From Escherichia coli (GTDB taxonomy: Bacteria > Pseudomonadota > Gammaproteobacteria > Enterobacterales > Enterobacteriaceae): DNA of 64,000 nucleotides. A model generated the notes under the pieces. It worked only from the letters and a program-made list of their open reading frames with translations, searched no databases and was not told the origin of the DNA. Position numbers and translations under genes: made by a program. The DNA lies in NCBI RefSeq assembly GCF_003991155.1, contig NZ_CP031293.1; one strand, given 5' to 3'. This document shows, piece after piece, positions 26,606 through 29,600 of this stretch (position 1 is the first letter of the stretch; each line of letters starts with the position of its first letter).

Positions 26606-29600
26606 ATGGACGTCAGTCGCAGACAATTTTTTAAAATCTGCGCGGGCGGTATGGCTGGAACAACAGTAGCGGCATTGGGCTTTGCCCCAAAGCAAGCACT
26701 GGCTCAGGCGCGAAACTACAAATTATTACGCGCTAAAGAGATCCGTAACACCTGCACATACTGTTCCGTAGGTTGCGGGCTATTGATGTATAGCCTGGGT
26801 GATGGCGCGAAAAACGCCAGAGAAGCGATTTATCACATTGAAGGTGACCCGGATCATCCGGTAAGCCGTGGTGCGCTGTGCCCGAAAGGGGCCGGTTTGC
26901 TGGATTACGTCAACAGCGAAAACCGTCTGCGCTACCCGGAATATCGTGCGCCAGGTTCTGATAAATGGCAGCGTATTAGCTGGGATGAAGCATTCTCCCG
27001 TATTGCGAAGCTGATGAAAGCTGACCGTGACGCTAACTTTATTGAAAAGAACGAGCAGGGCGTAACGGTAAACCGTTGGCTTTCTACCGGTATGCTGTGT
27101 GCCTCCGGTGCCAGCAACGAAACCGGGATGCTGACTCAAAAATTTGCCCGCTCCCTCGGGATGCTGGCGGTAGACAACCAGGCGCGCGTCTGACACGGAC
27201 CAACGGTAGCAAGTCTTGCTCCAACATTTGGTCGCGGTGCGATGACCAACCACTGGGTGGATATCAAAAACGCTAACGTCGTGATGGTGATGGGCGGTAA
27301 CGCTGCTGAAGCGCATCCCGTCGGTTTCCGCTGGGCGATGGAAGCGAAAAACAACAACGATGCAACCTTGATCGTTGTCGATCCCCGTTTTACGCGTACC
27401 GCTTCTGTAGCGGATATTTACGCACCTATTCGTTCCGGTACGGACATTACGTTCCTGTCTGGCGTTTTGCGCTACCTGATCGAAAACAACAAAATCAACG
27501 CCGAATATGTTAAGCATTACACCAACGCCAGCCTGCTGGTGCGTGATGATTTTGCTTTCGAAGACGGTCTGTTCAGCGGCTACGACGCTGAAAAACGGCA
27601 ATACGATAAATCGTCCTGGAACTATCAGTTCGATGAAAACGGCTATGCGAAACGCGATGAAACACTGACTCATCCGCGCTGTGTGTGGAACCTGCTGAAA
27701 GCGCACGTTTCCCGCTACACGCCGGACGTAGTAGAAAACATCTGCGGTACGCCAAAAGCCGACTTCCTGAAAGTGTGTGAAGTGCTGGCCTCCACCAGCG
27801 CACCGGATCGCACAACCACCTTCCTGTACGCGCTGGGCTGGACGCAGCACACCGTGGGTGCGCAGAACATCCGTACTATGGCGATGATCCAGTTGCTGCT
27901 CGGTAACATGGGTATGGCCGGTGGCGGCGTGAACGCATTGCGTGGCCACTCCAACATTCAGGGCCTGACTGACTTAGGCCTGCTCTCTACCAGCCTGCCA
28001 GGTTATCTGACGCTACCGTCAGAAAAACAGGTTGATTTGCAGTCGTATCTGGAAGCGAATACGCCGAAAGCGACGCTGGCTGATCAGGTGAACTACTGGA
28101 GCAACTATCCGAAGTTCTTCGTTAGCCTGATGAAATCTTTCTACGGCGATGCCGCGCAAAAAGAGAACAACTGGGGCTACGACTGGCTGCCGAAGTGGGA
28201 CCAGACCTACGACGTCATCAAGTATTTCAACATGATGGACGAAGGCAAAGTCACCGGTTATTTCTGCCAGGGCTTTAACCCGGTTGCGTCCTTCCCGGAC
28301 AAAAACAAAGTGGTGAGCTGCCTGAGCAAGCTGAAGTACATGGTGGTAATCGATCCGCTGGTGACTGAAACTTCTACCTTCTGGCAGAACCACGGCGAGT
28401 CGAACGATGTCGATCCGGCGTCTATTCAGACTGAAGTATTCCGTCTGCCTTCGACCTGCTTTGCTGAAGAAGATGGTTCTATCGCTAACTCCGGTCGCTG
28501 GTTGCAGTGGCACTGGAAAGGTCAGGACGCGCCGGGCGAAGCGCGTAACGACGGCGAAATTCTGGCGGGTATCTACCATCATCTGCGCGAGTTGTACCAG
28601 GCCGAAGGTGGTAAAGGCGTAGAACCGCTGATGAAGATGAGCTGGAACTACAAGCAGCCGCACGAACCGCAATCTGACGAAGTAGCTAAAGAGAACAACG
28701 GCTATGCGCTGGAAGATCTCTATGATGCTAATGGCGTGCTGATTGCGAAGAAAGGTCAGTTGCTGAGTAGCTTTGCGCATCTGCGTGATGACGGTACAAC
28801 CGCATCGTCTTGCTGGATCTACACCGGTAGCTGGACAGAGCAGGGCAACCAGATGGCTAACCGCGATAACTCCGACCCGTCCGGTCTGGGGAATACGCTG
28901 GGATGGGCCTGGGCGTGGCCGCTCAACCGTCGCGTACTCTACAACCGTGCTTCGGCGGATATCAACGGTAAACCGTGGGATCCGAAACGGATGCTGATCC
29001 AGTGGAACGGTAGCAAGTGGACGGGTAACGATATTCCGGACTTCGGCAATGCCGCACCGGGTACGCCAACCGGGCCGTTTATCATGCAGCCGGAAGGGAT
29101 GGGACGCCTGTTTGCCATCAACAAAATGGCGGAAGGTCCGTTCCCGGAACACTACGAGCCAATTGAAACGCCGCTGGGCACTAACCCGTTGCATCCGAAC
29201 GTGGTGTCTAACCCGGTTGTTCGTCTGTATGAACAAGACGCGCTGCGGATGGGTAAAAAAGAGCAGTTCCCGTATGTGGGTACGACCTATCGTCTGACCG
29301 AGCACTTCCACACCTGGACCAAGCACGCATTGCTCAACGCAATTGCTCAGCCGGAACAGTTTGTGGAAATCAGCGAAACGCTGGCGGCGGCGAAAGGCAT
29401 TAATAATGGCGATCGTGTCACTGTCTCAAGCAAGCGTGGCTTTATCCGCGCGGTGGCGGTGGTAACGCGCCGTCTGAAACCGCTGAATGTAAACGGTCAG
29501 CAGGTTGAAACGGTGGGTATTCCGATCCACTGGGGCTTTGAGGGTGTCGCGCGTAAAGGTTATATCGCTAACACTCTGACGCCGAATGTCGGTGATGCAA

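Follow-up and report, generated by a model that had tools for sequence, protein, structure and literature searches.

An in-frame TGA at positions 27191-27193 of the 64-kb stretch of Escherichia coli DNA analyzed here (the window) is almost certainly the codon for selenocysteine (Sec) 196 of fdnG; it is recoded by way of a downstream hairpin, and the gene is intact. Both the recoding and the SECIS element of fdnG are already known, textbook and altogether ordinary, and the original demonstration of the Sec codon and SECIS of the E. coli gene is said to be that of Berg et al. in 1991.

The window shows 2 mismatches to E. coli strain 2016C-3878, which identifies it as E. coli chromosome, and of the 5426 complete genomes examined for the species, 5425 contain the region. 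When positions 26606-29653 (plus strand, like the features described below unless stated otherwise) are translated in one frame, the result is 1016 codons including the terminal stop, and the sole internal stop is the TGA, codon 196 of a 1015-codon frame. The original prediction had been that two mechanically called open reading frames, 26606..27193 and 27242..29653, share this frame and are split only by a TGA at codon 196, and the translation agrees; the start of the second frame at 27242 is simply the internal Met213. The gene at 26606..29653 is fdnG, which encodes the alpha (catalytic) subunit of formate dehydrogenase-N (FDH-N) with its internal UGA read through. RefSeq annotates a single intact fdnG coding sequence that carries no pseudogene flag and is followed by fdnH and fdnI. 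With a Cys placeholder at residue 196, the translation scores 1623.9 bits against the NCBIfam equivalog model TIGR01553 (cutoff 814.2) over residues 2-1014. In a search of the PDB, done with the same placeholder, chain A of 1KQF (FDH-N alpha) aligns over residues 1-1015 and has a non-standard residue exactly at 196, followed by His197; the other best matches are "selenocysteine-containing" formate dehydrogenases. Relative to 1KQF there are at least four substitutions (E127D, L342F, E366A, and S666A), all of them distant from the Sec codon and the hairpin.

Downstream of fdnG lie fdnH (29666..30550), the Fe-S beta subunit gene (RefSeq; TIGR01582, 482.1 bits, cutoff 334.7), and fdnI (30543..31196), the gene for the cytochrome b gamma subunit. 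Since the latter scores 486.5 bits with the FDH-N gamma model NF007558 and only 268.4 bits with the FDH-O gamma model, the operon is fdn rather than fdo, and the locus 26606-31196 is the E. coli fdnGHI operon. Export of FdnG through the twin-arginine (Tat) pathway is established, and the motif S-R-R-Q-F-F-K can be read off the translation at codons 4-10 (26615..26635). The Tat signal peptide is mentioned in the literature, where the ligands of the N-terminal [4Fe-4S] cluster are named as Cys50, Cys53, Cys57, and Cys92 (PMC3636253); all four cysteines, like the SRRQFFK motif, are present in the FdnG translation. An open reading frame on the minus strand (26780..27949, 389 aa) was rejected as a chance frame opposite a G+C-rich gene, and RefSeq annotates nothing there.

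In the catalytic FDH-N subunit, Sec196 is a ligand of the molybdenum held in the bis-MGD cofactor, and the U-H pair at the Mo-ligand position of FdnG also occurs in fdoG and fdhF. Alignment with these paralogues, which had been proposed as a check, places a TGA at codon 196 of fdoG and at codon 140 of fdhF, the latter within the motif ARV-U-HGP. The identity of the inserted amino acid is known from the literature: tandem mass spectrometry (MS/MS) detected the peptide V-U196-HGPTVASLAPTFGR, with Sec and never Cys at residue 196 of FdnG/FdoG, and in a selC mutant translation terminates at UGA196 (PMC3636253). That this is the known Sec position of the enzyme, and a case of recoding rather than of a pseudogene, is borne out by residue 196 of 1kqf_A, by RefSeq, and by the MS/MS data.

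The full SECIS element, in the limits of the Rfam family SECIS_3 (RF01989), occupies 27188..27246. It scores 84.3 bits against a gathering score of 63 (E = 1.4e-18), covers model positions 1-59 of 59, and is the only Rfam match within the 64-kb window. The minimum free energy (MFE) fold amounts to -14.6 kcal/mol for 27191-27240 and to -12.7 kcal/mol for 27194-27236. Because 25 of 200 shuffled versions of 27191-27240 fold equally well or better (z = -1.03), the stability of the hairpin is by itself no evidence, and the weight falls on the covariance model and on the comparative data presented below.

At the apex of the element is a mini-hairpin, the putative SelB-binding site (27205..27222), which is seen in the MFE fold and in the pairing of homologues, its 5-bp helix also in RNAalifold. 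Separated from the UGA by 11 nt, it consists of two G-C pairs, a bulged U at 27207, a 5-bp helix, and a G-U-C loop at 27213-27215; numbered from the U of the UGA, the bulge is U17 and the loop is G23, U24, and C25. This geometry is rare in the window: among its 2355 TGA triplets on both strands, the seven apical pairs together with G-U at positions 23-24 of the loop occur only at 27191-27193. Beneath the apex is a lower stem, whose 5' arm, together with the spacer that leads from the UGA to the mini-hairpin, lies at 27194..27204 (MFE fold and Rfam consensus) and whose 3' arm lies at 27228..27238 (MFE fold and homologue pairing). The register of this stem is ambiguous: applied to the window sequence, the Rfam register contains the mismatches A-C (27195/27235) and A-G (27199/27231) and the MFE register fits better, yet neither is clearly favored across homologues.

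The original prediction of a stem-loop downstream of the TGA was right as to the existence of the hairpin, which both the MFE fold and SECIS_3 recover, but imprecise in placing its start 3 nt downstream. What counts in the structure is the apical mini-hairpin, and this comes later, at 27205-27222. The Rfam consensus stem begins at 27194, directly after the TGA, and the MFE fold already pairs the A of the UGA; nor does the hairpin end at 27235, as had been supposed, for the whole helix extends to about 27236-27238.

The element can also be compared with a published consensus model for bacterial SECIS elements (bSECIS), which calls for 3-9 nt in the apical loop and 4-16 bp in the upper stem that bears it, a G in loop position 1 or 2 that is usually followed by G or U, a distance of 16-37 nt from the UGA to the apical loop, and an MFE of at most -7.5 kcal/mol (PMC13188914). 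Here the GUC loop has 3 nt and the upper stem 7 bp (5 bp, the bulged U, and 2 bp); the loop opens with G27213 and U27214; the interval 27194-27212 measures 19 nt; and the energies of -12.7 to -14.6 kcal/mol lie below the limit, unexceptional as they are against shuffles. A role of the hairpin as terminator or promoter was also considered and rejected, a scan of 26300-27400 having given no terminator-like or promoter-like site.

Together with the covariance model, comparison among homologues gives the hairpin its significance. The 59-mer at 27188-27246 is identical in at least 17 loci from several genera of the Enterobacterales, and a wider sample of 50 distinct Sec-type (FdnG-type) sequences, drawn from many phyla among the matches listed, allows the individual base pairs to be followed. 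In these 50 homologues the apical helix is paired in 96.9% of cells, four of its seven pairs have been altered on both sides in a compensatory manner, and the loop GU at positions 23-24 is kept in 48. The covariation score was reached by none of 500 shuffles, a significance that is overstated owing to the kinship of the sequences, and controls in which the structure was slid along the alignment were 28-57% paired, against 88-90% for the real structure. RNAalifold independently finds the apical 5-bp helix; it omits the lower stem and offers another small hairpin built of invariant columns. For the lower stem 81-85% of cells are paired and one or two pairs covary, with the qualification that the invariance of its 5' arm is in part a matter of construction, since the homologue search pattern fixed most of columns 1-14. 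The apical helix of the fdnG SECIS is evolutionarily maintained. RNA folding had been named as a further check of the prediction, and it is favorable in that SECIS_3 lies above threshold and the apical helix is backed by compensatory changes and by frozen synonymous sites.

The peptide that follows Sec196 is itself highly conserved, which raises the question of whether the UGA might be recoded while the hairpin is a mere by-product of the conserved active-site codons HGPTVASLAPTFGRG, devoid of any function at the RNA level. Its unexceptional stability would be in keeping with this, and yet we consider such an origin very improbable. In a comparison of 21 fdnG/fdoG sequences from the Enterobacterales, the pairwise identity of third codon positions reaches 0.98 within codons +1 to +15, exactly over the hairpin, and remains at 0.90-1.00 out to codon +21, as against 0.48-0.63 in the flanks. 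This block of frozen synonymous sites extends from codon -1 to codon +21 (27188..27256), and the freeze is an RNA-level constraint over the hairpin. Two of the covarying pairs, 21-33 (Val+5/Ala+9) and 24-30 (Ala+6/Leu+8), join third codon positions only, so that selection on the protein cannot account for their covariation. Homologues of the Cys type retain a near-identical peptide (HGPTVSALA.., HGPSVAGLQ..) but have lost the helix and the GU loop, the FdnG-like ones forming 3.5 of the seven apical pairs against 6.78 in the Sec types. To this may be added the score of the Rfam covariance model given above.

Even less probable is that the TGA is a nonsense mutation and fdnG a pseudogene, from which would come only a fragment of 195 residues or nothing functional; we accord this a negligible chance. 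Its appeal lies in the fact that an ORF finder splits the gene in two at the TGA, but fdoG has a TGA at this very codon, fdhF has one within the same motif, and the TGA is present in at least 76 loci of FdnG-like type across many groups of bacteria. The 820 codons downstream are open and match 1KQF from end to end, and no decay of the downstream frame was seen in close relatives. The lack of a RefSeq pseudogene flag, the observation of Sec196 by MS/MS (PMC3636253), and the full-length, selenium-containing FdnG polypeptide in the literature all speak against it as well. Scarcely any more credence can be given to a split alpha subunit, in which termination at 27193 would be followed by re-initiation at the in-frame ATG 48 nt after the TGA (27242) to yield two polypeptides, since the 16 intervening codons HGPTVASLAPTFGRGA are conserved as protein and present in the crystal chain, the MS peptide V-U196-HGPTVASLAPTFGR crosses the junction (PMC3636253), the promoter and terminator scan has nothing at the junction, and a single FdnG chain of ~110 kDa has already been reported.

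Recoding of the UGA as Sec196 requires the selenocysteine machinery, whose presence had been suggested as a check on the prediction. At the level of the species the check comes out favorably: of 5426 complete E. coli genomes, 5424 carry selC, 5425 carry selA-selB, and 5425 carry selD. Within the 64-kb window itself, a search for tRNA genes found none, and there is no sel gene.

The UGA at 27191-27193 is almost certainly neither a stop nor a mutation but is recoded as Sec196 in the course of translation, the signal being the mRNA hairpin that lies directly downstream and within the coding sequence; no result obtained here contradicts this. By analogy with the fdhF and fdnG elements of E. coli, the apical hairpin would be bound by the C-terminal domain of SelB, which would carry GTP and the Sec-tRNA(Sec) that SelC, SelA, and SelD produce. 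As the ribosome brings the UGA into its A site, the lower stem (on the side of 27194..27204) would presumably be melted, and the tethered SelB could then deliver its Sec-tRNA(Sec) while competing with release factor 2. We infer that the fdnG hairpin binds SelB and is needed for the decoding of the UGA because it is identical to the K-12 fdnG/fdoG element and because its key nucleotides are common to the fdhF SECIS.

The closest of the known systems is the fdnG SECIS of E. coli K-12 (RF01989, PDB 1KQF), which is the same gene, codon, and RNA element with differences only at the level of the strain. In fdoG (formate dehydrogenase-O) the 60 nt that follow the TGA are identical to those of the window and the three-subunit architecture is the same, but the gene belongs to a paralogous operon, fdoGHI-fdhE, located elsewhere on the chromosome, and by its score the window's gamma subunit is of the FDH-N and not the FDH-O kind. 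The SECIS of fdhF (formate dehydrogenase-H) is the experimentally dissected bacterial SECIS, and its SelB-dependent mechanism is the same as that of fdnG; U17, G23, U24, and the spacing of 11 nt in fdhF are reportedly the subject of work by Liu et al. in 1998, Huttenhofer et al. in 1996, and Yoshizawa et al. in 2005. Like fdnG, fdhF has its UGA within ARV-U-HGP and a mini-hairpin whose first nucleotides, GGU, come after a spacing of 11 nt; the U at +17 is bulged, and the loop has G-U at +23/+24. It differs in that its upper helix has one base pair fewer and its loop is larger (GGUUGCAGGUCUGCACC), which displaces the 3' arm by one nucleotide; only about two of seven pairs form in the FdnG register. 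Its lower stem is unlike that of fdnG in sequence, and the product is a cytoplasmic enzyme of 715 aa in which Sec occupies codon 140. The SECIS elements of archaea and eukaryotes likewise direct the reading of UGA as Sec by means of a hairpin in the mRNA and an elongation factor dedicated to the task. They are located in the 3' UTR, whereas the fdnG element follows the UGA directly within the coding sequence, and the eukaryotic elements have a kink-turn core and require SBP2 (PMC13188914, PMC8659212).

The frozen block runs past the 3' end of SECIS_3 by about 10 nt and past the hairpin's final base pair by about 18-20 nt. It seems improbable to us that the nucleotides in this overhang serve a further function at the RNA level common to fdnG and fdoG, for which an extended contact of the SECIS with the ribosome or with SelB, or the target site of a regulator, would be candidates. 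The alternatives are a few codons conserved by chance and gene conversion between fdnG and fdoG.

The result for Sec196 and its SECIS brings nothing new to biology. Recognition of the Sec codon prevents the mis-annotation of fdnG as a pseudogene or as two genes, and fdnG is a clean positive control for a scan, in which an RNA signal lying inside a coding sequence is visible as frozen synonymous sites and as covariation between third codon positions.

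The TGA triplet at 27191-27193 is the selenocysteine codon of fdnG: the observation itself was confirmed, its interpretation as UGA196 is supported, and both this codon and its SECIS element are already known in full. Translation of 26606-29653 in one frame gave 1016 codons, with an internal stop only at codon 196 in addition to the terminal one; the position of the TGA, its codon number and the 1015-residue length of the product had all been given correctly in the original prediction. A mechanical ORF list divides the gene into 26606..27193 and 27242..29653, which share a frame, and the apparent start of the second ORF at 27242 is the internal Met213. 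The alternative of a split gene, with translation restarting at 27242, is contradicted, being at odds with several independent results. The same holds for the view that fdnG is a pseudogene: RefSeq annotates at this locus a single intact fdnG CDS, 'formate dehydrogenase-N subunit alpha', with no pseudogene flag, and Sec recoding is supported by this intact CDS, by residue 196 of PDB 1kqf_A, by a match to the SECIS_3 family and by published MS/MS data.

All of the window belongs to the E. coli chromosome, and it differs from strain 2016C-3878 (NZ_CP029747.1) at 2 of 64,000 positions, one of them 19477, inside narZ, and the other within 1-6545. In the RefSeq annotation fdnG is followed by fdnH and then fdnI. 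The fdnG protein, with Cys put as a placeholder at residue 196, scored 1623.9 bits against NCBIfam TIGR01553 (cutoff 814.2); the gene directly 3' of it matches the FDH beta model, and the third gene of the operon scored 486.5 bits with the FDH-N gamma model versus 268.4 with that of FDH-O gamma. FdnG residues 1-1015 align with 1kqf_A, 'formate dehydrogenase, nitrate-inducible, major subunit', and in this alignment the TGA falls exactly on the non-standard residue at position 196; the runner-up structures are named 'selenocysteine-containing' formate dehydrogenases. Also present in the translation are the twin-arginine sequence SRRQFFK and, at the ligand positions named in PMC3636253, the four cysteines of the [4Fe-4S] cluster, C50, C53, C57 and C92.

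According to that paper, FdnG and FdoG each have Sec at position 196, MS/MS identified the peptide V-U196-HGPTVASLAPTFGR, with Cys never seen at that position, and without Sec-tRNA(Sec) the translation of fdnG and fdoG mRNA halts at UGA196 (PMC3636253). On translation, the window encodes exactly this peptide. The original demonstration of the fdnG Sec codon is reportedly that of Berg et al. in 1991, a study cited by PMC13188914. No tRNA or sel gene was found in the 64-kb window. With selA-selB and selD of MG1655 as queries, together with a tRNA-Sec sequence that is 100% identical to features annotated tRNA-Sec, the insertion machinery proved nearly universal among 5426 complete E. coli genomes (selAB in 5425, selD in 5425 and selC in 5424), and the fdnG region was found in 5425 of them. 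In the E. coli genome collection a few sel and fdn sequences are carried by plasmids: matches to the fdnG region at 26 places, a single copy of tRNA-Sec and two of selD.

Elsewhere in the window, an IS110-like IS621-family transposase gene (10831-11811, plus strand) is annotated between nhoA and yddE in the RefSeq record of the matching genome. All Rfam families stayed below their gathering scores in this region; IS621 itself is known for a recombinase guided by a bridge RNA. Between narU and a porin gene lie an intact leucine-rich-repeat protein gene (21387-22643, minus strand) and a truncated LRR pseudogene (23087-23374, minus strand). The porin gene, which is intact and adjoins yddG (24135-25235, minus strand; 366 aa, annotated 'porin OmpC'), encodes a second OmpC-family porin, away from the canonical ompC position. 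A small toxin-antitoxin pair (31247-31809) lies directly 3' of fdnI in convergent orientation; in it the HigA-family antitoxin gene yddM (31247-31531, minus strand) overlaps by one base the gene of a RelE/ParE-family toxin (31531-31809, minus strand). The window ends within ydeP (63387-64000, minus strand, 3' end cut), whose product is a molybdoenzyme of the FdhF/YdeP family, related to the formate dehydrogenases but not itself a selenoprotein.

The SECIS_3 family (RF01989) matches 27188-27246 on the plus strand over the whole model (84.3 bits versus 63, E = 1.4e-18), and was the sole Rfam match in all 64 kb at gathering thresholds. The MFE fold of 27191-27240, at -14.6 kcal/mol, comprises a lower stem and an apical mini-hairpin; the predicted stem-loop is present, and its proposed start, 3 nt downstream of the TGA, was imprecise. 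The mini-hairpin (27205-27222, plus strand) begins 11 nt past the UGA and consists of two G-C pairs, a bulged U at 27207, five further pairs and a G-U-C loop at 27213-27215, which places the bulged U at +17 and the loop G and U at +23 and +24, counted from the U of UGA. In the fdhF SECIS, SelB binding and the right distance to the A site depend on the bulged U, the loop G-U and the 11-nt spacing. The GGU...GGUC arrangement of fdhF stands at the same distance from its UGA as that of fdnG here, and a recent preprint pictures the two elements next to each other (10.64898/2026.03.03.709296). The bacterial SECIS model, as given in PMC13188914, has a loop of 3-9 nt opening with G and then G/U, an upper stem of 4-16 bp, a spacing of 16-37 nt and an MFE of -7.5 or lower; the fdnG hairpin agrees with each of these, its UGA-to-loop spacing being 19 nt. 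A simple scan covered 2355 TGA triplets across the window, and only 1 of them had an apex of this kind. The folding energy of 27191-27240 is ordinary for its composition (z = -1.03), so that hairpin stability alone is unconvincing. The lower stem has A-C and A-G oppositions in the Rfam register, from which the MFE register is free; among the homologues listed, in which most of columns 1-14 are set by the search pattern, it is 81-85% paired in either register with few compensatory changes, and RNAalifold favours over it a small alternative hairpin of invariant columns. For these reasons we grade the lower stem as probable and leave its register ambiguous between the two versions.

Synonymous sites were compared in 21 enterobacterial fdnG and fdoG sequences (82-100% protein identity over a 180-codon segment), invariant degenerate codons being scored. 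Third-position pairwise identity was 0.48-0.58 upstream of the TGA, 0.98 for codons +1 to +15, 0.63 for +16 to +35 and about 0.5 beyond, with a fully frozen block at codons -1 to +21 (27188-27256). The coincidence of frozen sites with the hairpin argues independently for constraint at the RNA level. The frozen sites run on through codons +16 to +21 (27239-27256, A-M-T-N-H-W), which takes them beyond both the hairpin's final base pair and position 27246, where the Rfam model stops; this extension may reflect chance or fdnG/fdoG gene conversion, only four of its codons being informative. Among the matches listed from a broader range of bacteria (Pseudomonas, Burkholderiales and others), Gly+15 and Ala+16 are variable at their third positions.

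Species-representative genomes were scanned once for GCNCGNGTNTGHCAYGGNCC, a pattern encoding A-R-V-(Sec/Cys)-H-G-P that places no constraint on the apical hairpin; at least 120 loci matched. Sorted by encoded peptide, the matches listed comprise at least 76 FdnG-like loci with TGA (at least 50 distinct 59-mers), at least 4 FdnG-like with Cys, at least 9 FdhF-like with TGA, at least 10 FdhF-like with Cys and at least 20 unrelated chance matches. The 59-mer of the window recurs unchanged in at least 17 loci, among them, in the matches listed, Photorhabdus, Citrobacter, Enterobacter, E. albertii, Providencia, Yersinia, Superficieibacter and others. In an ungapped alignment of 50 distinct Sec-type 59-mers, which are related by descent and have most of columns 1-14 set by the pattern, 96.9% of the apical-helix cells are paired and 4 of the 7 pairs change on both sides; the covariation score was reached by 0 of 500 shuffles, and when the 3' partners were shifted by 1-3 columns, pairing fell from 88-90% to 28-57%. 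RNAalifold also found the 5-bp apical helix without any prior. Columns 21 and 33, the third positions of Val+5 and Ala+9, pair as GC 37, AU 5, CG 4 and GU 2 times; columns 24 and 30, those of Ala/Ser+6 and Leu+8, as AU 30, CG 17 and GC 1. Since these are covarying synonymous sites, selection on the protein cannot be their source. The idea that the hairpin arises simply as a side effect of codon conservation is contradicted, and is likewise at odds with several independent results.

The apical helix is broken in 2 of the 50 Sec-type sequences, the Desulfovibrio-type loci L044 and L099, in which the TGA and the peptide HGPTV...FGRG are retained. Within 59 nt from the TGA, these two loci have ..GGUACCGGCUCUGGCAGAG.. 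where the SECIS_3 apex would stand, and only 2-3 of the 7 apical pairs can form; they evidently use another hairpin, presumably of a different SECIS class. Among the matches listed, Cys-type FdnG homologues form a mean of 3.5 of the 7 apical pairs (a small set, n = 4), versus 6.78 for Sec types, and in FdhF paralogues the corresponding segment folds at -1.6 kcal/mol in the Cys type versus -5.6 in the Sec type. The four FdnG-like loci with TGT/TGC at the Sec position, L020 (Snodgrassella), L043 and L068 (Vogesella) and L065 (Orbaceae), have no apical helix, and the GU loop is missing in three of them, L065 having kept a GTT loop. These loci illustrate the exchange of Sec and Cys in the family.

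In E. coli, an intact frame is broken only by UGA196, the hairpin fits a curated SECIS family, its apex is evolutionarily maintained and the sel genes are species-wide. From established knowledge, the apical hairpin would be bound by SelB-GTP-Sec-tRNA(Sec), the ribosome would melt the lower stem, and with UGA196 in the A site SelB, competing with RF2, would hand over the Sec-tRNA(Sec). The resulting Sec196 would then be a Mo ligand in the mature, Tat-exported enzyme.
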